Shown here: piece by piece, positions 3,928 through 53,023 of the stretch
How the letters are laid out: each line of letters begins with the position of its first letter
How positions within the stretch are numbered: the first letter of the stretch is position 1
Source: Octopus vulgaris
Taxonomy: Eukaryota
Reading direction: 5' to 3'
Assembly: GCA_951406725.2 (NCBI GenBank)
Contig: OX597822.1
Location: 3,162,001 to 3,226,000, forward strand
Length of the DNA stretch: 64,000 nt
Translations under genes and position numbers: made by a program
The notes under the pieces: model-generated
Told to the model about the DNA's origin: nothing
Database searches by the model: none
The model's input: only the letters and a program-made list of their open reading frames with translations

Positions 3928-4035
3928 AGCCACTACACATATTCTTTTTTCTTTCCTTGTTTCTCTCTGTGTTCCTTTCTGTGGGAGAGCGTAGGCTCGA
4001 AACGTAAAAGACTTTTTCAATTCCTGTTATACTAA
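3925..4035 (+). mobile_element. Short HHR-like repeat (gagcgtaggctc family)
   Basis: Homologous to 34640-34826, 62628-62800 and 63565-63630(-); gagc-gtag-gctc-gaaacgta hairpin. Confidence 0.7.
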
Positions 4036-4390
4036 TAACTCCTTTATCGTCATTGCCCAGGTCTTCAGCTGCCCGCCCGTGCATTTGCGCCAGCTGGGAA
4101 GTGGATTTGGGAGGAGGACATCGCGAATCAGCTCACCCTCTGGACGCTGGGCCGCATGACCGAACCACCTTAAGCGCCGTTGTAAAAGCACTAAAGAGAA
4201 GGGCTGGAGATTCAGGTGATGAAGACCGGCTGTAGGAAGCCGATCAATGCATCGGCAGCGAAGAATGCGGCGGAGACAGTCATTGTCGAACACCTCCAGC
4301 CTTCGTTGATCGACTACCCTCATAGGCCGTGTTTCACAACCATAGTCTATGAGGGTAATCCCAACTTGGATCAGCATTGGTCTTAATGAT
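4036..4390 (-). mobile_element. RTE-clade LINE ORF2 C-terminal fragment
   Basis: RRLEVFDNDCLRRIL...LQRRLRWFGHAAQRPEG...RKCTGGQLKTW is typical of RTE C-termini. Confidence 0.85.
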
Positions 4391-5425
4391 ACAATATATA
4401 TTGTTTTTTGTTTCCTTTTGGTTTGTTTCCTTTTGATGTCCATTGTGTAGGTTTCCCGCGATTTGGCTTTGCCTTGTTTTGTTATTAAGTTGTTTTTTTT
4501 CACACATTTCTCCCATGCTTGTTTTATTAACTCAAGAATTTGCACCTTGGGACGTTTAAGATATCCACTGTGTTGAAAATACAAGATGAACAACTTCCGG
4601 CCAAACAAATCGCTTTCGATACACGTAAGAAGCATAGGACTTAAAGAAAACACTTCGTTTATCAAACTATCCAATTTGTATCAACATTGTCATATTTTCA
4701 GAAATTAGAAACTAGCTGAAAATTGTAACAACTCAAAAGATCAACAACATCCTACATGAAAATGGTATCATGCAGCCAGCTTCATCATCGTTCTACGCAC
4801 ACCTTTAAATATTTTAGAAAGGTTTATATTTGATATCAATAAGCCACACGGCTTTCCTTTCAAATCACAGAATGGATTGAAACCAATCCAATTAACCACT
4901 GCACATTTCATTAACCTGATACAGAAAATACAATATGGTTTTGACATTGGAAAAAAATAAAACCTCTTGTTCTAATAATGGTTGACGTCAGCAAAAGTTT
5001 CGGCTTCATTCCATGCAAACGATTCGTACAAAGAATAGTGAAGAGTGCCATAAGAAGACAGTAAATAAATATATAAAATATAATTTACAAGGATTTACAG
5101 TTTCAGCTAGAACAAGCAATTTCAAGAATGGAGTATCACTTAGATAAAGTAATTTGCATATAATAACGTAATCGGTCGTCTAATTTATCTACGCTGCTAG
5201 TAATAGGGGGTTTGAATGCGCGCAGCTTTGTGAATAGGGTTTTGGAGCCCACGATCTTTCTATTCCAGAAAAGAACGTTCAGTTGTGTCCTCTAGAAAGG
5301 AACTTCTTTATCTGTTGAGGTCCGTCGATAGAAGGTAGCAGCGACTCTTCTCCGCCCTACGATACACAGAGAATCTCAGTGTCTTTCCAGGCACTGGTAT
5401 CGCAAATAGCCAGTGGGCTTATTCG

Positions 5426-13684: not shown

Positions 13685-14757
13685 AGATAACTTAGATTGG
13701 TTTCGGCCATTATCGGCCCAGGCCATGGCTAACTCAATAGCACCACCTGGAAAAGTCGTTTAGTTAATTATTTTGGGACACCATGGACCACTCGAGCAGA
13801 GAGTTGTTGTTGGTTGAGACGTATCCAGGTGTAGGGTGTTTATCCGGTATTTCCTGGAGGAATTTGCCCAGGTACCGTTTGAAAGTTGTAGATGTTTTTT
13901 TACTTTAATTTCTTTTGGCATAACATAGAAACGTGCAGGACAATTTGCAGTGAAGAAATTGTGTCACAATCTTCTTATGTGATGTGATCTCGACCTTTGT
14001 AGGGAACGCATTGCACGGGGCCTAGTCTTGGGTAAATTGTAAACATAATGCCAATATCATTTGGATAATATTGGTGGAATATTTTCCACATGGTGCAAAT
14101 AATGTATCACTCACGGCGACTTTGCAGAGAATCGAGCTTCAGCTGTTTAAGTCGAGCACAATAATTAAGTCCCATCACGCCATTAATTCTTTGTGATTAA
14201 TCTTTGTGGCGCTTCGATCCTCATTATGTCTTGCTTTTTTTTGTAGAGAGACTACAATGGGTAGCAGTATTCGAGGTGGGGGCCTAGCGAATGTGAAGAA
14301 GTGAAGGATGATGGTTTCATGATCCCTAGATTGGAAAGTTCTGAGGATCCATGAGCACATTCTGTGGGCAACATCGACAGTTTTGTTGATGTACACACTC
14401 CAACTAAGGTTGCTGTCGGCAATTACACCTAAGTTTCTGATATCCGACGGTTCAAGTAGGTCTCCCGACGGTATTGTATGTGGTTGTTTGAGCGTACCCT
14501 CTCTCCCAAAGTGGATGACCTCAAATATTTCTTCCTCCAACTGCATATTGATTTTTTTTTTGTGCTCACTGGTTTCAAGGGAATCTGCAATGTCATTGAT
14601 ATAGACACTAAAAGAAAGTGGACCCAGCACAGTACTCTGCGGGACACCGCTGATGAATTTTACTGGTCTTGAGTGGATGCCATCAACCACAACATGGTGG
14701 GTCCTGTTTGTTAGGAAATACCTAATCTATTGAAGTAGGTTTCCATCGACTCCATCG
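13685..14757 (-). mobile_element. CR1/L2-like LINE, 5'-truncated (RT C-terminal part plus 3' UTR)
   Basis: SGVPQSTVLGPLSFSVYINDI; RNLGVIADSNLSWSVYINK...WILRTF. Confidence 0.9.
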
Positions 14758-14958: not shown

Positions 14959-15099
14959 AATATATATATATATATATATCACAATCAAGGAACGGCCATA
15001 ATAGGCCATTCACCCACTAGAAATAACAGCCAAAAGCTTTAACCGCAAAATAACATTAATACCGTAAACCAGGAGAAAATTGAAAAACTTTTACCCTGT

Positions 15100-15208
15100 A
15101 ATTTCTTAGACGATGCACCGTTTCATCTACCGTTTAATGGTAAACTAACCTGATTAAATTAAATCAAGCCAATCCACCATAGGCCCTTAGACTCATCAGT
15201 AAGAAATA
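15100..15208 (-). ncRNA. Type I hammerhead ribozyme (inverted copy)
   Basis: Reverse complement of 15722-15828. Confidence 0.8.
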
Positions 15209-15721
15209 GCCAAATCGGAACAGATATTTTTCACGAGGCATTCCTCTTGCTACCTCGGCAATATCTGACCTAAAATTTTCAAATCGTCGCTTTCGCGCCA
15301 AATTTATCGGCAGCAAATAAATATAAGCCACCGATTCCGTTACGGAACTAACCAGAAAATTCATAATTAATCAATATAGGGTGGCAAAAAATTTTGTAGA
15401 ATTCTTTTGCCACCAGCGGCCTAGTAGGAAAAAATTAAATAGTCATAAACGTAATAGTCATGTTGAACGTAAAAATGGTTTATGACTATTTAATTTTTTC
15501 CTACTAGGCCGCTGGTGGCAAAAGAATTCTACAAAATTTTTTTGCCACCCTATATTGATTAATTATGAATTTTCTGGTTAGTTCCGTAACGGAATCGGTG
15601 GCTTATATTTATTTGCTGCCGATAAATTTGGCGCGAGTGCGACGATTTGAAAATTTTAGGTCAGATATTGCCGAGGTAGCAAGAGGAATGCCTCGTGAAA
15701 AATATCTGTTCCGATTTGGCT

Positions 15722-15828
15722 ATTTCTTACTGATGAGTCTAAGGGCCTATGGTGGATTGGCTTGATTTAATTTAATCAGGTTAGTTTACCATTAAACGGT
15801 AGATGAAACGGTGCATCGTCTAAGAAAT
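15722..15828 (+). ncRNA. Type I hammerhead ribozyme with long stem II
   Basis: atttctta-CTGATGA-gtcta...tagat-GAAA-cggtgcatcg-TC-taagaaat: 8-bp stem I, canonical core, predicted cleavage after 15820. Confidence 0.88.
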
Positions 15829-16211
15829 TACAGGGTAAAATTTTTTCAATTTTCTCCTGGTTTACGGTATTAATGTTATTTTGCGGTTAAAGCTTTTGGC
15901 TGTTATTTCTAGTGGGTGAATGGCCTATTATGGCCGTTCCTTGATTGTGATGTTGAACGTAAAAATGGTTTATGACTATTTAATTTTTTCCTACTAGGCC
16001 GCTGGTGGCAAAAGAATTCTACAAAATTTTTTTGCCACCCTATATTGATTAATTATGAATTTTCTGGTTAGTTCCGTAACGGAATCGGTGGCTTATATTT
16101 ATTTGCTGCCGATAAATTTGGCGCGAGTGCGACGATTTGAAAATTTTAGGTCAGATATTGCCGAGGTAGCAAGAGGAATGCCTCGTGAAAAATATCTGTT
16201 CCGATTTGGCT

Positions 16212-16318
16212 ATTTCTTACTGATGAGTCTAAGGGCCTATGGTGGATTGGCTTGATTTAATTTAATCAGGTTAGTTTACCATTAAACGGTAGATGAAACG
16301 GTGCATCGTCTAAGAAAT
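16212..16318 (+). ncRNA. Type I hammerhead ribozyme (second tandem copy)
   Basis: Same as 15722-15828; predicted cleavage after 16310. Confidence 0.88.
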
Positions 16319-16666
16319 TACAGGGTAAAAGTTTTTCAATTTTCTCCTGGTTTACGGTATTAATGTTATTTTGCGGTTAAAGCTTTTGGCTGTTATTTCT
16401 AGTGGGTGAATGGCCTATTATGGCCGTTCCTTGATTGTGATGTTGAACGTAAAAATGGTTTATGACTATTTAATTTTTTCCTACTAGGCCGCTGGTGGCA
16501 AAAGAATTCTACAAAATTTTTTTGCCACCCTATATTGATTAATTATATATATATATATATATTAATCATGGATAAAATATTTATAAGATTTTAAAATGTA
16601 ACCAGTATGTAATGAACCATATACTTAATAATTAATACAAGTATATATAATTAATTAAATATGACA

Positions 16667-17482: not shown

Positions 17483-17497
17483 CAATTATACATATAT

Positions 17498-17605
17498 AAA
17501 CGTTAAACCCTCCTTCTTTCCTTCTTTCCTGAGCGTCCAATAATACTATATTTGTTCCACGTCCTCGCGTTGTTGTGTTGTTTGTACTTTCTTGTTTGGA
17601 TTAAC

Positions 17606-17607
<2 letters not shown>
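17498..17607 (+). mobile_element. 3' part of gagctccgctc HHR-like repeat
   Basis: Homologous to 23198-23310; ends in (TA)n. Confidence 0.75.
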
Positions 17608-18549: not shown

Positions 18550-19940
18550 ATTTTTCATACGATCACATTATTTTTGTTTCATTTTCTTATTTTGGAGCTT
18601 ACTCTATACAATTGTTGTTAAATTCGTATCGATTTTGCCTTTCAAAAATAAGTTTCAATGAGAACCATAGTAGATACCTCATGCTATATGAATTCAAAGG
18701 GGGGTTCTCTGTAATTGAAGCATCGAGAAATATTTGTCCTATCATTGAAAATGAAGCTGTAAGTTTCGAAACGTATCACCGATGGTTTGGCCAGTTACGT
18801 GGGACCACTTTTCTCTTGTAGATTTTCCTCAATCTGGACGCCCAAATTCTTATTTCTTTATTGCCCACAAGGGGCTAAACATAGAGAGGACAAACAAGGA
18901 CAGACAAAGGGATTAAGTCGATTATATCGACCCCAGTGCGTAACTGGTACTTATTTAATCGACCCCGAAAGGATGAAAGGCAAAGTCGACCACGGCGGAA
19001 TTTGAACACAGAACGTAGCAGCAGACAAAATTCCTATTTCTATTTCTCTACTACCCACAAGGGGCTAAACACACTGAGGACAAACAAGGACAGACAAGGG
19101 TTATTTCGATTACATCGACCCCAGTGTGTAACTGGTACTTAATTTATCGACCCATAAAGGATGAAAGGCAAAGTCGACCTCGGCGGAATTTGAACTCAGA
19201 ACGTAACGGCAGACGAAATACGGCTACGCATTTCGCCCGGCGTGCTAACGTTTCTGCCAGCTCGCCGCTTTAAATTTGGACGCCCAAATTCTGTTAGTAA
19301 TTGACTGTTTGAAAAAACTAGTGAAAAATCCCTCAAATTTAAAGTTAACAACACACGAATTCGCAAAATAGTTCAATTCAAGTCACATTTTGATCATAGG
19401 AAAAAAAAAAAAACAATCATGAAGCAGGAAAATTTTCTGAACTTGGTCGTTGGATATCAATGAAAGGGTTGCCCTCTGCACATCATTGAAGAGTAGATTT
19501 GCTAACGATCCTTTCCTGGGTAAAATCCTCACAACTGATGTCAATGGATAGCACTCATCAAAACAGGATAAACCCTCACCAAACCAGAAGTACCCCCGGA
19601 GAAAGTTAAGCCCTGTGCCTGATGCGATTTGAAATGCGTTATCTACCACGAAGAGTTAAACCAAAGCGAAAAGGTTAATGAGAGGAAGTATTACCGTCAA
19701 ATTGGAAACATTGTACAAAATTGTGAAGTAGAGTGCAAATTATTGATCAACCGTAAAGGATTGTTGCTTTTACTCAATTGTGCAAGACCACATATTAATC
19801 AAGTAACGGAGAAAAAGATTATGGCACTAGATATGACAGATCTGGCACATACTCCTTACTCCCTTGACCTTGCTCCCTCTGATTATCCTCTTTTCATGTA
19901 ATTGCAACGTTATTTAGAGACATTTATATCCAATTATGTT
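18550..19940 (+). mobile_element. Decayed mariner transposon interrupted by a SINE dimer
   Basis: YLMLYEFKGG..EASRNIC; PFLGKILTTD; NCARPH; HTPYSLDLAPSDYPLF. Confidence 0.85.
18851..19272 (-). mobile_element. SINE family 1 dimer with target-site duplication
   Basis: TSD tggacgcccaaattct at 18835-18850 and 19277-19292. Confidence 0.9.
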
Positions 19941-20032: not shown

Positions 20033-20668
20033 TATTTCTTTACTACCCACAAGGGGCTAAACATAGAGGGGGCAAGCAGGGACAGACAAACGGATTAAGT
20101 CGATTATATCGACCCCAGTGCGTAACTGGTACTTAACTTATCGACCCCGAAAGGATAAAAAGCAAAGTTGACCTCCGCAGAATTTGAACTCAGGACGTAA
20201 CGGCAGACGAAATATCGCTAAGCATTTCACCCGGCGCGCTAACGTTTCTTATTTCTTTACTACCCACAATGGGGTAAACACAGAGAAGACAAACAAGGAC
20301 AGACAAACGGATTAGGTCGATTATATCGACCCCAGTGCGTAACTAGTACTTATTTAACCGACCCCGAAAGGATGAAAGGCAAAGTTGACCTCGGCGGAAT
20401 TTGAACTCACAACGTAACGACAGACGAAATACCGATTTCTTTATTACCCACAAGGGGCTACACATAGAGGGGACAAACAAGGACAGACATAGGTATTAAG
20501 TCGATTATATCGACCCCCAGTGCGTAACTGGTACTTATTTAATCGACCCCGAAATGATGAAAGGCAAAGTCGACCTCGGCGGAATTTGAACTCACAACGT
20601 AACGGCAGACGAAATACTGCAAAGCATTTCACTCGGCGTGCTAACGTTTCTGCCAGCTCGCCGCCCTT
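20033..20668 (-). mobile_element. SINE family 1 trimer
   Basis: One complete head and three tandem bodies. Confidence 0.9.
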
Positions 20669-23048: not shown

Positions 23049-23094
23049 TATATATATATATATATATATACATTTTCATATATATATATACATT

Positions 23095-23310
23095 TCAAAA
23101 TATGACCGCGTGTGTACCGTTGGCGATCTATTTTCCTCCGTCTTGCCTTCTTTGGATCTTTCCTTTTCCTATGTTTCTGACGAAGAGCTCCGCTCAAAAC
23201 GTTAAACCCTCTTTCTTTCCTTCCTTCCTGAGCGTCCAATAATACTATATTTGTTCCACGTCCTCGTGTTGTTGTGTTTTCTCTTTGTGTTTGCATGTTT
23301 TGTTTAACTA
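23095..23310 (+). mobile_element. Short HHR-like repeat (gagctccgctc family)
   Basis: gttt-CTGACGA-a-gagc tcc gctc-(a)AAA-cg-TT-aaac; homologs at 32462-32660 and 40918-41125(-). Confidence 0.75.
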
Positions 23311-32389: not shown

Positions 32390-32448
<59 letters not shown>

Positions 32449-32461
32449 TATACATACACAA

Positions 32462-32660
32462 TATGAGACCGCGTGTGTATAGGCGATTTTGTTTCTCGGT
32501 CTTCCCTTCTTTGGACTTTTCTATATTTCTGACGAAGAGCTCCGCTCGAAACACGTATTTTTTTTTCTTTCCTTTCTTGAGCGTCAAATAAATACTGTAT
32601 TTATTCCACGTCCTCGCGTTGTTATCTTTTATTGCTTGTTCATGTTTAGATTAACTGCAT
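32462..32660 (+). mobile_element. Short HHR-like repeat (gagctccgctc family)
   Basis: CTGACGA-a-gagc tcc gctc-GAAA at ~32529-32551. Confidence 0.75.
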
Positions 32661-35911: not shown

Positions 35912-36492
35912 GAAGGCGGCGAGCTAGCACAAACGTTAGCACGCCGGGCGAAATGCTTAGCGGTATTTCGTCTGTCTTTACGTTCTGAGTTCAAATTCCG
36001 CCGAGGTCGACTTTGCCTTTCATCCTTTCGGGGCCGATTAAATAAGTACCAGTTACGCACTGGGGTCGATATAGTCGACTTAATCCATTTGTCTGTCCTT
36101 GTTTGTCCCTTCTGTGTTTAGCACCTTGTGGGTAGTAAAGAAATAGCTATTTCGTCTGCCGCTAGGTTCTGAGTTCAAATTCCGTCGATGTCGACTTTGC
36201 CTTTCATTCTTTCGGGGTCGATTAAATAAGTACCAGTTACGCACTGGGGTCGATGTAATCGACTTAACCCGTTTGTCTATCCTTGTTTGTCCTCTCAGTG
36301 TTTAGCCCCTTGTGGGTAGTAAAGAAATAGGTATTTCGTCTGTCTGAGTTCAAATTCCGCCGAAGTCGACTTTGCCTTTCAACCTTTTCAGCGATGATAA
36401 ATTATGTAACAGTTGCGTACTAGGGTCGATCTAAACGACTGACACCCTACCCAAAAATTTCGGGCCTCGTGCTTAGAGTAAGAAAGAATATT
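35912..36492 (+). mobile_element. SINE family 1 trimer
   Basis: One head; bodies restart at ~36147 and ~36330. Confidence 0.9.
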
Positions 36493-39082: not shown

Positions 39083-39857
39083 TAAAACACATTGAGAGGC
39101 TTCCATCATAGGAATGCCTTGCGCTAGAAACAACAGTTAAAGTCTAAGCCACTAATTAGGGATAAATTCTCGAAGGGAATGAAAAATAAAAACATTTACC
39201 ATCTAATTCAATTGAATTAGATGGTAAATGTTCTTTCTAGCGCAAGGCATTCCTATGATGGAAGTCTCTTAATGTGTTTTAATGTACACTGTATTTTATA
39301 TGAATAATATATAGTCTTTTGACTAAATTTTTTGCGCTAGACTACTGGTAGTAAAAATTGCTATAATTTTTATTACCCTGATATTATTTATTATGTTTAA
39401 TGATTTCTGGTAAATTTGTTCGAAGTTTTTACCGGCATCCTCTCCGTTGCCGACAATAGACTGCGACTGCGCAGTGGATTTGAAAAAAATTAAAATGTAC
39501 AAGCAATGAGTTTACATGCGGAATCGATCTCGCTGTGTGTATATTTATTCTAAGGCTACCCGCTGAAGAAGACGACCTCAGTAAATTTTAATTTTACTGA
39601 TATAAGTCAGAAACCATGGTCCGGGAATTGAATTAGATGGTAAATGTTTTTTTACTTTTCATTCCCTTCGAGAATTTATTCCTAATTAGTGACTTGGACT
39701 TTAACTGTTGTTTCTAGCGCAAGGCATTCCTATGATGGAAGCCTCTTAATGTGTTTTAATGTACACGGTATTTTATATGAATAATATATAGTCTTTTGAC
39801 TAAATTTTTTGCGCTAGACCACTGGTAGTAAAAATTGCTATAATTTTTATTACCCTG

Positions 39858-39863
<6 letters not shown>
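39083..39863 (+). mobile_element. Retrozyme-like element, 477 bp unit, partial tandem with 5' inversion
   Basis: 39083-39212 is the reverse complement of 39626-39757; direct repeat 39235-39386 / 39712-39863; HHR at 39559-39625; ends in (TA)n. Confidence 0.85.
39559..39625 (+). ncRNA. Type I hammerhead ribozyme
   Basis: cccg-CTGAAGA-a-gac..tcagtaaa/tttactga..gtc-a-GAAA-ccatgg-TC-cggg; predicted cleavage after 39621. Confidence 0.78.
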
Positions 39864-39892
<29 letters not shown>

Positions 39893-40118
39893 GAAATATT
39901 AAAATTACTAAGTCTCTCTAAAAGAGAACAGCGGCAGCGTTCCCGGAAAATAATAGTTATCGCCATACTAATATGGCATTCTTATAAAAATAAGAATAAA
40001 GCTGTCCGCTTATTAGCTCCATGAGGCCATCGCCTTAAGTTAGCTATTTGATACACAAACTGTATCCATATAACCTTCGAACAAGGGAGGTCAGTCGCTC
40101 CACACTACTTGACCGGCA

Positions 40119-40160
40119 GCTACAGACGCGTTTCGGGGTATTGCCTCTTTTCAATGCAGC
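40119..40160 (-). ncRNA. Minimal type I hammerhead with U3-A8 core
   Basis: gctgca-TTGAAAA-gagg caata cccc-GAAA-cgcg-TC-tgtagc. Confidence 0.75.
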
Positions 40161-40480
40161 GTCGCCAGCCAGTAGGTGTCGCTTCCGACAATCTCTGTTC
40201 GATGGTTTTATTTACCTAGTTTCAGTGGAATACATCCACTTGTTTTCAATAATAGAAATATTAAAATTACTAAGTCTCTCTAAAAGAGAACAGCGGCAGC
40301 GTTCCCGGAAAATAATAGTTATCGCCATACTAATATGGCATTCTTATAAAAATAAGAATAAAGCTGTCCGCTTATTAGCTCCATGAGGCCATCGCCTTAA
40401 GTTAGCTATTTGATACACAAACTGTATCCATATAACCTTCGAACAAGGGAGGTCAGTCGCTCCACACTACTTGACCGGCA

Positions 40481-40522
40481 GCTACAGACGCGTTTCGGGG
40501 TATTGCCTCTTTTCAATGCAGC
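40481..40522 (-). ncRNA. Minimal type I hammerhead with U3-A8 core (copy 2)
   Basis: Same as 40119-40160. Confidence 0.75.
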
Positions 40523-40843
40523 GTCGCCAGCCAGTAGGTGTCGCTTCCGACAATCTCTGTTCGATGGTTTTATTTACCTAGTTTCAGTGGAATACATCCA
40601 CTTGTTTTCAATAATAGAAATATTAAAATTACTAAGTCTCTCTAAAAGAGAACAGCGGCAGCGTTCCCGGAAAATAATAGTTATCGCCATACTAATATGG
40701 CATTCTTATAAAAATAAGAATAAAGCTGTCCGCTTATTAGCTCCATGAGGCCATCGCCTTAAGTTAGCTATTTGATACACAAACTGTATCCATATAACCT
40801 TCGAACAAGGGAGGTCAGTCGCTCCACACTACTTGGCCGGCAG

Positions 40844-40879
40844 CTACAGACGCGTTTCAGGGTATTGCCCCTTTTCAAT

Positions 40880-40883
<4 letters not shown>
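40844..40883 (-). ncRNA. Minimal type I hammerhead with U3-A8 core (copy 3)
   Basis: ctaca-TTGAAAA-gggg caata ccct-GAAA-cgcg-TC-tgtag; substitutions keep the stems paired. Confidence 0.78.
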
Positions 40884-40917
<34 letters not shown>

Positions 40918-40919
<2 letters not shown>

Positions 40920-41123
40920 TTAATCCAAACAAGAAAGCACAAAAAAAAAACACAACAACGCGAGGACATGGAACAAATATAGTATTATTGGACGCTCAGG
41001 AAAGAAGGAGGGTTTAACGTTTCTAGCGGAGCTCTTCGTCGGAAACATAGGAGAAGGAAAGATCCAGAGACGGGAAGACAGAGGAAAAAAAATCGCCAAT
41101 GGTACACATGCAGTAACATTTTG

Positions 41124-41125
<2 letters not shown>
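40918..41125 (-). mobile_element. Short HHR-like repeat (gagctccgctc family)
   Basis: Reverse-complement homolog of 23095-23310. Confidence 0.8.
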
Positions 41126-41165
<40 letters not shown>

Positions 41166-50610: not shown

Positions 50611-50875
50611 CACATGTTTGCTAGAAAGAAGCGTTAAAACTCTCTAAAGCCACGCATCTCTCACTATATGTAAACACGCTGATGATCTTTAAGTGCCATT
50701 CGGCACATAAAGTGAAATCGACTGATACTGGGATATCTATTCTTCTCTTTGTGGTTTTACAAATGGGGAGTACAGTTTCTTAGTATCTTTGCTACGTTCT
50801 TCGTGCGTGTTTACATATAGTGAGAAATTCATGGCTTTGGACAGTTTTAACTCTTCTTTCTAGCAAACAGGTGTA
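50610..50875 (+). mobile_element. Fold-back element with HHR remnant and shared motif
   Basis: Arms 50610-50679 / 50805-50875; CTGATGA-t-cttta-gtgcc/ggcac-taaag-t-GAAA-tcga at 50679-50722; motif at 50849-50864. Confidence 0.65.
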
Positions 50876-51004
50876 TATTGTATCTTGAATTTTGATAATA
50901 TATATTTTGCCTAATTTGGTCACGTTCGCTGGCCACTTTATCATTATTTTTATAAAGATAATGATAACTTCTTTGAAATTTGTGTTCGGCTAGCCATGAC
51001 CTTT

Positions 51005-52050
51005 CTTTCACCTTGCTGTGTTTTATGACGCTGGGAAGGTGGTTTATATAGGCTATAAAGAGAAGCAGGCCCAAAACTATCCCCCGAGGCACACCACTGG
51101 TGACATTTGTTGGGCCTGAATGGATTCCACCGATCACAACATGTGCTCTGTTCTCCAGGAAATACTCAATCCAGTGTAGCAGTTTCGCACGGATGCCAAC
51201 ATTTGACAATTTTGACTGTAGGATATTATGGTTGACTCTGTCGAACGCTTTACTGAAGTCAAGACATATGACATCAGAGTTCGAACCTGATCCCAAGGCT
51301 TTAAGGATATCATCGATATGGTGTAAAAGCTGTGTTAGTCCCTGCAGCAGCGAAAGCCATGCTGGTTTGAATTTAGGAGATTGTGGCTCTCCAGGAAGTC
51401 AGCTATCCTTGATCTCACCACTCTTTCAAACACTTTAATGATATGGGAGGTGAGTGGGATTAGGCGACAGTTGACTAAGAGAGATCTGTTTCCCCGTTTG
51501 AAAACCAGGATGACACAATGGGATAAGAGCTGCTTCAGTATATAACCTTCACCTAAATAATTTCTCCAGAGGTTGGTTAGAGAGGAATGCAAGTTGGGTT
51601 CTACATTCCTTCAGGAGACGAGCGGGGAATCTATCAGAGCCTATAGCAGAATAGTATCTGATCTCATTTATTGCTGCTATGATTATCTGAAACAGTAAAG
51701 GTTATGTCCGAGATTATATGTTGGGAGTCGACTTCGTTCACAACCCTTACTTCATTATCAGTGGTATCACAAAAGACAGAGCAGTATTGTTTCCGCAGTA
51801 CTTCTGCGATTCCATGTTGGAGAATGCCGTTATCATCGTTCAATGGACCAACGGGTGAGACAGCGGTGCTATGCTTATTTGCAAATGAATAGAACCCTTT
51901 TGGGTTCTGCTTGATTTTTTTTGATTACCCACTGTTCCTCTGCAGGTCTTTGATTTTCAGTGCAAGTTTTCATGTTGGTCTGCAGATGAAGTCTTGCCAA
52001 TTCCAGCCTTTTCATTGTTGTTGAATGTGGATGTTGTATGTGGGAGTATT
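51005..52050 (-). mobile_element. CR1-like LINE RT fragment
   Basis: NCRLIPLTSHIIKVFERVV...NQHGFR; DVICLDFSKAFDRVNH; SGVPRGIVLGLLLFIAYIN. Confidence 0.9.
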
Positions 52051-52149: not shown

Positions 52150-53023
52150 CGAGGGGCGTTCAATAAGTAATGCCCCTGACCTACTTCCCATAGCAGTAGA
52201 GCAACGAAACTTAGCACAGTTATTAGTCTTTTTCTACGTAGGAATCACCCAGAGTTACGCATTTCTCCCATCGTTTGATGCAGCGCTGGAGACCGTTTTT
52301 GTAGAAGACCCCAGCTTGGTCCTCCAACCACGACGTGACTTTAGAAATCAAGGCTGCATTATCTGTGAAATGCTTTCCTTTCAAAAACAACTTCATGGCT
52401 GAGAAGAGGTGAAAATCAGAGGGTGCAAGGTCAGGAGCGTAGGAGGGATGGGGGAGGAGTTCATAGCAGCACGCCTGTGCTTCTGATCTGGCGACACGCG
52501 AGTTGTGGACCAGAGCGTTGTCCTGCAGGAGGAGGATGCCTTTGCTGATCTTGCCCCACCTCTTGATTTTGATAGCTTCACTTAATTTCCTCAAAAGTGA
52601 AGCATAATAGGCTCCTGTAATTGTGGTACCCTTTGCCAGGAAATCTGTCATCACTACTCCGTCCTGGTCCCAGAAGACTGGGAGCTGTTTCCACAGAGTT
52701 CCGACCATATTTGAATTCACGATGCCAGCGTTTTACAAGGTCATATGATGGGGCATCATCACCATAAGTTACTTTCATTTCATCAAAAGTCTCCCGTGGT
52801 GTGCGTCCTTTCAAATACAAAAACCGGATCACTGCTCGACACTCAACAGGCTCCATTTCACACTTGACTCAGTTCAAACACCTGTAAATCAGAAACCACA
52901 ATTAGCACAGAGCTGTAATTAGCCACTTAATCTATAGAGGTATAGATAATTGCAAATGCAAAATTTCAGCTAGATCAAACAAATGCAAGTGGGTCAGAGG
53001 CATTACTTATTGAACGTCCCTCG
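52150..53023 (-). mobile_element. Mariner element with both TIRs and internally deleted transposase (52223-52856)
   Basis: TIRs cgaggggcgttcaataagtaatgcc / ggcattacttattgaacgtccctcg with TA TSD; HTH N-terminus joined directly to VFWDQDG...LLQDNA...HPSYAPDLAPSDFHLF. Confidence 0.95.

Follow-up and report, generated by a model that had tools for sequence, protein, structure and literature searches.

The window analysed here, a stretch of 64,000 nucleotides from Octopus vulgaris (contig OX597822.1), contains a tandem array of a non-coding 362-bp unit at 39887..40883, on the minus strand. It comprises 2.75 copies; its 5′ end is truncated inside the first hammerhead motif and its 3′ end lies at 39887. 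TRF places the 362-bp period at 39887-40880 (2.7 copies, 99% matches), and BLAST carries the last copy to 40883. The copies are named A (U3 at 40878; copy 3 of the initial annotation), B (U3 at 40516) and C (U3 at 40154). Between B and C there is no difference (100% identity), and A differs from B at 40870, 40859 and 40836, plus 40881 beside the 5′ junction of A. Both ends fall within strandless microsatellites, (AG/TC)17 at 40882..40916 for the 5′ junction and (AT)16 at 39858..39889, the likely target site, for the 3′ end; a search for a target-site duplication at the array ends returned none. The array and its minus-strand hammerhead motifs, as described in the initial annotation, are real, and there are three type I motifs with the core UUGAAAA (U3-A8).

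No ORF is present in the array or between its units, and a tRNA gene search of the unit found none. The longest stop-free frame of the unit (115 codons) is antisense, and the 115-codon frames were rejected as genes because they have no further support and lie on the strand opposite to the structured one. Judged on reading frames and the tRNA gene search, the unit is non-coding and has no LTR, PBS or tRNA part. In this, and in having tandem units within ~150-450 bp (here 362 bp), each with a type I hammerhead (three motifs), the array agrees with non-LTR retrozymes. The ORF for reverse transcriptase (RT) and GIY-YIG between pseudo-LTRs (pLTRs) that marks autonomous Penelope-like elements is absent from the array.

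Three other hammerhead-bearing repeats with a Penelope-style tandem, inverted or microsatellite-bound layout occur in the window, two of them directly beside the array, and the 362-bp unit shows no meaningful similarity to any of the three. A second hammerhead array, at 14978-16546, has a 490-bp unit in 2.2 tandem copies plus an inverted 5′ copy and ends on (AT)n, again a Penelope-style layout; its CUGAUGA core lies at 15730+, 16220+ and 15199-, with an 8-bp helix I, a 68-nt helix II region and a near-palindromic helix III. The repeat at 39083-39868 is arranged in incomplete tandem at a spacing of 477, with some of its parts inverted; its CUGAAGA hammerhead, at 39563+, is decayed, and it ends on the (AT)16 of the 362-bp array, tail to tail. 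Finally, a dispersed repeat of ~230 bp with a minimal hammerhead is found at 40918-41126 (-), directly upstream of the array, and at 23051-23309 (+), 32421-32656 (+) and 17495-17606 (+); two copies have a C3-G8 core, the copy beside the array has U4C, and the core is missing in the shortest. Additionally, a dispersed SINE-like repeat forms short tandem runs (units of ~185-217 bp) at 18851-19219, 20033-20617 and 35964-36440; such runs are typical of octopus genomes. The window as a whole is rich in microsatellites, and its dispersed repeats resemble those known from octopuses. Read by eye, broken frames at 4027-4680, 14175-14726, 50847-51398 and 52223-52732 (all -) resemble LINE reverse transcriptases and mariner transposase, and nothing resembling a Penelope ORF was apparent among the window's 68 ORFs of at least 110 aa.

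In each copy, the minus strand reads helix I, UUGAAAA, helix II (loop CAAUA), GAAA, CGCG, UC and helix I again. When this order is compared with C3 U4 G5 A6 N7 G8 A9, G12 A13 A14, A15.1-U16.1 and H17, only C3 and G8 deviate. The literal hammerhead consensus is thus missed at two bases (3 and 8), a variant that is accepted as natural in PMC3088659. C3 and G8 form an established tertiary pair (PMC3884650), and the proposal that UUGAAAA stands in place of CUGANGA, with U3-A8 keeping the 3-8 pair, holds in that all other type I core positions match. On the letters of the motif, then, C3-G8 is replaced by a putative pair-preserving U3-A8.

When both strands of the window were scanned with a relaxed descriptor of a hammerhead with the U3-A8 core, these three sites were the only matches; 30 locally shuffled windows gave none, so the motif is more than chance. 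By contrast, the Rfam hammerhead models gave no match at gathering score over the window and none at E up to 10 over 39700-41100, which bears out the prediction that standard searches miss a U3-A8 motif. Two other Rfam matches near the array (E 1.5 and 10) were set aside as unrelated chance matches.

Hammerhead B, with its extended helix I, occupies 40455..40545 on the minus strand. Helix I is formed by 40517-40522 and 40481-40486, the core from U3 to A9 by 40516-40510 (A8 at 40511), helix II by 40509-40497 with an A-C mismatch at 40508/40498, G12 to A15.1 by 40496-40493, helix III by 40493-40488 and C17 by 40487; the predicted cut lies between 40487 and 40486. Hammerhead C (40093..40183, minus; U3 at 40154) is identical, with a predicted cut between 40125 and 40124, and the 5′-truncated hammerhead A (40817..40883, minus; U3 at 40878) would be cut between 40849 and 40848. 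Helix I is open and has 6 bp plus a distal extension, helix II has four positions and helix III 1-2 bp, and in fold predictions five of the six helix I pairs reach a probability of 1.0. In canonical metazoan hammerheads, helices I, II and III measure 6, 4 and 1-2 bp and loop 3 is palindromic; the minimal form has a helix II of 7-8 bp, a helix I of 4-5 bp, an unpaired base before helix II and a poorly defined loop 1 (PMC4209133). Consequently, the earlier description of the motif as minimal was wrong: helix II has 4 bp, helix I has 6 bp and a distal helix, and no extra base precedes helix II, so that the form is the canonical metazoan type I.

Helix III is, as first noted, the exact palindrome ACGCGU. 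Within one copy its predicted pair probability is 0.0, whereas two ACGCGU strands are predicted to pair at -7.5 kcal/mol, and a double hammerhead formed through the paired strands of two copies is therefore likely on this model. Under the nearest-neighbour model, imposing the hammerhead fold on the two copies together carries a penalty of 21 kcal/mol. Dependence of cleavage on a dimer is probable, by analogy, but not certain, because axolotl motifs with a 1-bp helix III and a palindromic tetraloop cut poorly alone (6% as monomers, much better as dimers) but a coral motif cuts well alone (PMC7229834).

The unit belongs to a repeat family that extends far beyond this locus, as half or more of the sampled words of the array occur in each of 20 public runs, which come from 12 studies and carry 6 organism codes. 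None of these runs is listed as RNA; X9 may be an RNA run, but its contigs and its head-to-tail joint carry no information on transcription or circles. To survey it, the unit at 40335-40696 was compared with the contigs of four runs, of which 1821 (X1), 30 (X9), 1100 (X5) and 3 (X16) mapped; mapping was at 80% likeness or more, and relatives below 80% could carry C3-G8. Substitutions at 3% or more of the depth in a run were taken as family variants (25 are listed), and summed contig depths were not taken as copy numbers. No such variant occurs at any of the 13 core positions, in helix I or in helix III in any of the four runs. The initial annotation had allowed that the family consensus might be CUGANGA and this locus simply mutated; in fact, no other letter reaches 3% at U3 (40516) or A8 (40511) in the four runs, so U3-A8 is the core of the whole repeat family and not a product of local decay. 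The lack of variants over the 29 core and helix positions, among 25 listed substitutions, is not significant by itself (~0.12, calculated by hand). In X1, a subfamily has changed at N7 and 10.1 and kept U3 and A8 (one loose end, three contigs, full length perhaps from one).

The local copies, by contrast, differ from the family within the ribozyme. In B and C, helix II is interrupted by an A-C mismatch at 10.2/11.2, and the private changes of B are at 40508 and 40525. At 40508, the family letter is G in 99.97% of the X1 depth (228 of 731,280 lack it) and in all or nearly all of the depth in the other three runs; with this G, helix II consists of four G-C pairs. The predicted energy of the helix II hairpin is -5.3 kcal/mol in the family, -3.6 in copy A and +1.6 in copy B, where the pair probability falls to 0.04. 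At 40525, the family letter is U in 99.7-100% of the depth (99.7% in X1), and B and C have G. The family motif has a U-A-C internal loop (loop 1) in helix I and a C...A loop 2, and comparison with canonical type I motifs suggests that its U at 40525 may make the loop-loop contact. The loop contact of type I hammerheads includes a reverse Hoogsteen pair that is conserved (PMC6155905).

Copy A is cut off 5 nt before its core, and only 5 bp of its helix I are left because the 5′ strand of distal helix I, which carries the loop-1 strand, is missing. Its helix II is fully paired and has the family G, but with a G-U at 10.1/11.1 that is absent from the family variants listed at 3% or more. Its four differences from B thus amount to one family letter, one 25% family allele in X1 (C at 40836), this rare wobble and one change at the truncation junction. 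The earlier statement that this copy differs in stems I and II yet stays paired is right about the pairing, but each change is one-sided and none is compensatory, so they are not covariation. The three local copies are predicted to cut poorly, B and C through the helix II mismatch and the changed loop-1 U, and A through truncation and the G-U wobble. B and C carry two private ribozyme changes, so a cleavage assay confined to this locus might give a misleading answer. All three private changes of the locus fall in the 48-nt hammerhead of the 362-nt unit, a clustering with a probability of ~0.002 if random (0.016 for the 91-nt domain), in a post hoc calculation on one locus.

A generic U3-A8 pattern was also run against a metagenome collection, where it matched 116 loci from 38 of 64 parts. 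None of them is homologous to the 362-bp unit (one weak 35-nt match, at L063, lies in coding-like sequence), and the family-specific pattern found no stretch in the metagenome contigs. Three of the 116 have a helix I of at least 4 bp and a helix II of at least 3 bp, and a fourth (L005) is related to them; the remaining generic loci look like chance. These four form an unrelated U3-A8 type I family in AT-rich contigs (L087:296-338; L061, minus strand; L057:29-71 and 179-221; L005:597-637). L087, L061 and L057 have the same U3-A8 core with ACGCGUC and different helices, which indicates that the U3-A8 swap recurs. The two motif copies of L057 are 150 nt apart, and L005 has U3-A8 and C3-G8 motifs 160 nt apart. 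In L087 and L057, the motifs are followed by CACCCT-type repeats, as in the telomeric Athena elements (bioRxiv 10.1101/2021.04.23.441226).

These data bear on whether the hammerhead is alive at all. The repeat could be a satellite-like amplified sequence with a dead relic of a hammerhead, in which U3-A8 arose once in an ancestor and was then carried without selection for cutting. The lack of core variants is statistically weak, the local copies are damaged and the predicted helices II and III of B are unstable, all of which would be expected of a relic. Moreover, most tested Xenopus retrozymes stayed uncut (one of nine predicted dimers was cut in vitro; bioRxiv 10.64898/2026.07.22.740005), and Penelope insertion in vitro proceeds without need for a ribozyme (PMC11167929). 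However, a relic would have to combine two exact pair-keeping changes with other core bases, both helices and loop bases that are intact in the family, and it would not lead one to expect an X1 subfamily that changes N7 rather than U3 or A8, nor the same core with ACGCGUC in the unrelated L087, L061 and L057. We thus regard a dead hammerhead as improbable.

The predicted 362-nt monomer between two cut sites (40125..40486, minus) folds as a long rod closed by helix I of the hammerhead. As a circle, it has a minimum free energy of -119.2 kcal/mol (z -7.3, none of 100 shuffles as good), and the linear monomer has a z of -6.6. The antisense monomer (-98.1 kcal/mol, z -5.9) is also far better than its shuffles, and the hammerhead strand is 21 kcal/mol better. 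As predicted, then, the monomer is highly self-paired, as in non-LTR retrozymes. Of 11 pairs in the circle predicted for the window, 7 survive the family variants that reach 3% or more in X1, against 53% expected for random transitions; this is close to random, so the structure of the body has no clear covariation support, and covariation in it was discarded as an argument.

The head-to-tail joint of the unit (40696 to 40335, back 362) is present in all four runs, and X16 contains a 392-nt contig closing on itself; contigs of this kind cannot separate a DNA array from an RNA circle, nor show strand or ends. It might be argued that the tandem layout at the locus is partly an assembly artefact, with collapsed or duplicated reads of a high-copy repeat, as B and C are 100% identical and no contig spans the locus. 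Yet the same joints in four independent runs, the private letters common to B and C and the trace of X1 depth without the family letter at 40508 speak for a true array, and an artefact would alter the copy count only, not the motif. We consider it highly improbable.

A second regularity concerns the end of the element. Loose ends at 40611, the equivalent of the array end at 39887, occur in at least 14 contigs of X1, at least 14 of X5 and at least 2 of X16, with an (AT)n consensus beyond them in X1 and X5. Counted from the cut site, this point is nucleotide 238 of the 362-nt monomer, and the shared exit onto (AT)n means that the family has one 3′ end, away from the cut site. In X1 and X5 this end is followed by different flanks, which shows that the repeat is multi-copy and dispersed, as non-LTR retrozymes are. 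Among the 20 loose ends listed of 176, none leads into ORF-like sequence, and there are only microsatellite flanks and diverged subfamilies. One subfamily joint in X1 and X5, at the equivalent of 40335-40370, has one hairpin replaced by a related palindrome, apparently (read by eye) a two-sided stem change.

The 3′-terminal 41 nt of the element (39887..39927, minus) are the same as 40249-40289 and 40611-40651, and this piece is also found alone in one X16 contig. By analogy with the tail concept of PMC11167929, it may possibly be a Penelope-type "tail" or RT recognition site. A Penelope protein nicks AT-rich DNA and primes inside its RNA, with uncut RNA as its main substrate (PMC11167929), and Penelope-like elements show a (TA)n bias and tails of 30-40 nt (bioRxiv 10.1101/2021.04.23.441226). 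Priming of the Penelope type would be expected to leave an end like that of this family, on (AT)n and 238 nt beyond the cut.

A second, imperfect hammerhead-like motif (UUGAAAA, two extra bases, a 6-bp hairpin, GAAAC and GUA; 40575..40611 and 40213-40249, minus) starts exactly at this 3′-end point. It lacks a clean helix I, its A15.1 position (40582) varies in 27% of the X1 depth, and 9 of 20000 shuffles match a descriptor that was fitted after the motif had been seen. Its absent helix I and variable A15.1 led us to reject it, for now, as an active ribozyme, and it is probably a relic or a chance resemblance.

The same 3′ end opens a different account, in which an autonomous Penelope-like element has the unit as its pseudo-LTR, the copies are mostly 5′-truncated ends of this element and arrays arise by local DNA duplication, without a circular-RNA cycle. 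The fixed end on (AT)n and the 41-nt piece alone in X16 are as it would have them, the earliest animal examples of U3-A8 come from Penelope pLTRs (PMC4209133), and the identity of B and C is what a recent duplication would give. Furthermore, a derivation of animal retrozymes from Penelope pLTRs, that is, the same route, has been proposed (bioRxiv 10.64898/2026.07.22.740005). This account is at odds with the head-to-tail joints in four of four runs, with the 20 listed loose ends (of 176), none of which runs into an ORF-like sequence, and with a hammerhead that is canonical rather than minimal in a unit that folds as a whole into a rod. On balance, we find it unlikely.

We favour, at a probability of roughly 0.7, a reading in which the array is a head-to-tail, high-copy, non-coding repeat with a family-wide U3-A8 type I hammerhead, likely a non-LTR retrozyme copied into (AT)n by Penelope-like enzymes. 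Read-through RNA of the array would fold the canonical type I hammerhead, with U3 pairing A8 as C3 does G8. As helix III has only 1-2 bp, two neighbouring copies would likely pair their ACGCGU palindromes, cut after GUC and release 362-nt monomers, which a host ligase could circularise. A Penelope-type RT/endonuclease would then nick DNA at (AT)n and start copying from a constant point inside the RNA, 238 nt beyond the cut, so that a circle or an uncut multimer would give rise to a 5′-truncated tandem insertion. With regard to the template, the differences between copies A and B sit on both sides of the cut site and are confined to the first 45 nt of A, so a single circular template does not explain the array; the pattern is better accounted for by a template switch or by a heterogeneous multimer that stayed uncut.

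A bolder extension would make U3-A8 retrozymes a hidden class that has evolved repeatedly and escapes both Rfam and CUGANGA descriptors, in which multi-copy insertions are templated preferentially by the uncut RNAs of crippled ribozymes and the decayed second U3-A8 motif marks the RT start; we hold this to be doubtful. Surveys of retrozymes and Penelope hammerheads use literal-core descriptors (that of 2014, in the supplement of PMC4209133, has a literal "cuganga"), so a family such as this one is missed and retrozyme counts are too low. In this family, the C3-G8 tertiary pair of full-length type I ribozymes can also be tested on a variant that is natural and family-wide. The internal 3′ end, being fixed, connects retrozymes with priming of the Penelope type, a still hypothetical step of their life cycle. 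Each of these parts is known, and the advance stays a small one unless activity, a link between weak ribozymes and arrays, or abundant circles can be demonstrated.

The U3-A8 exchange itself is not new, having been published in 2011 (PMC3088659) and 2014 (PMC4209133). According to Perreault et al. (2011, PMC3088659), several natural hammerheads show a covariation of C3 and G8 to U3 and A8, and pairs of this kind had been proven active in vitro in earlier work. The pair swap is the same as in the array, but in the available parts of that paper it characterises rare variants and is not tied to a high-copy animal retroelement. Cervera and de la Peña (2014, PMC4209133) described ~1,300 U3-A8 hammerheads in Schistosoma Penelope elements. 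Those of the Cercyon elements of Schistosoma mansoni share a family-wide core covariation with the array in a Penelope context; they are a heterogeneous set of minimal motifs that mostly occur singly, with a short helix I, a long helix II and a loop 1 that is hard to define. The array, unlike them, has helices of 6, 4 and 1-2 bp, an extended helix I and near-identical tandem units.

In the literature searched, which leaves most subscription papers outside, U3-A8 wording was found only in PMC3088659 and PMC4209133, and combining octopus or cephalopod with hammerhead, retrozyme or Penelope returned no description of such a family; the passages of the review PMC6765202 on one related paper do not mention the core. 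Thus, the class of element is known and so is the rare core, while a canonical, high-copy tandem family with U3-A8 was not found in the literature searched.

As for insertion, the array resembles what Penelope-like elements leave (Poseidon of Anolis, PMC11167929; Neptune/Naiad) in its 5′ truncation, tandem layout and AT-rich or (TA)n target, as well as in a 3′ end at an internal RNA site and a terminal piece of 30-40 nt. It differs from them in having no ORF, and the Naiads, as far as described in bioRxiv 10.1101/2021.04.23.441226, lack hammerheads. The metazoan non-LTR retrozymes described by Cervera and de la Peña (2020, PMC7229834) measure 350-390 bp in mussel, 330/350 bp in axolotl and 220-245 bp in coral. 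The array departs from them in its U3-A8 core, unreported in the accessible passages of that work, and in its fixed 3′ end on (AT)n. Like them, it has a short non-coding tandem unit with a GC content below 50% and one canonical type I hammerhead per unit, a weak palindromic helix III, a strongly self-paired monomer and a high copy number.
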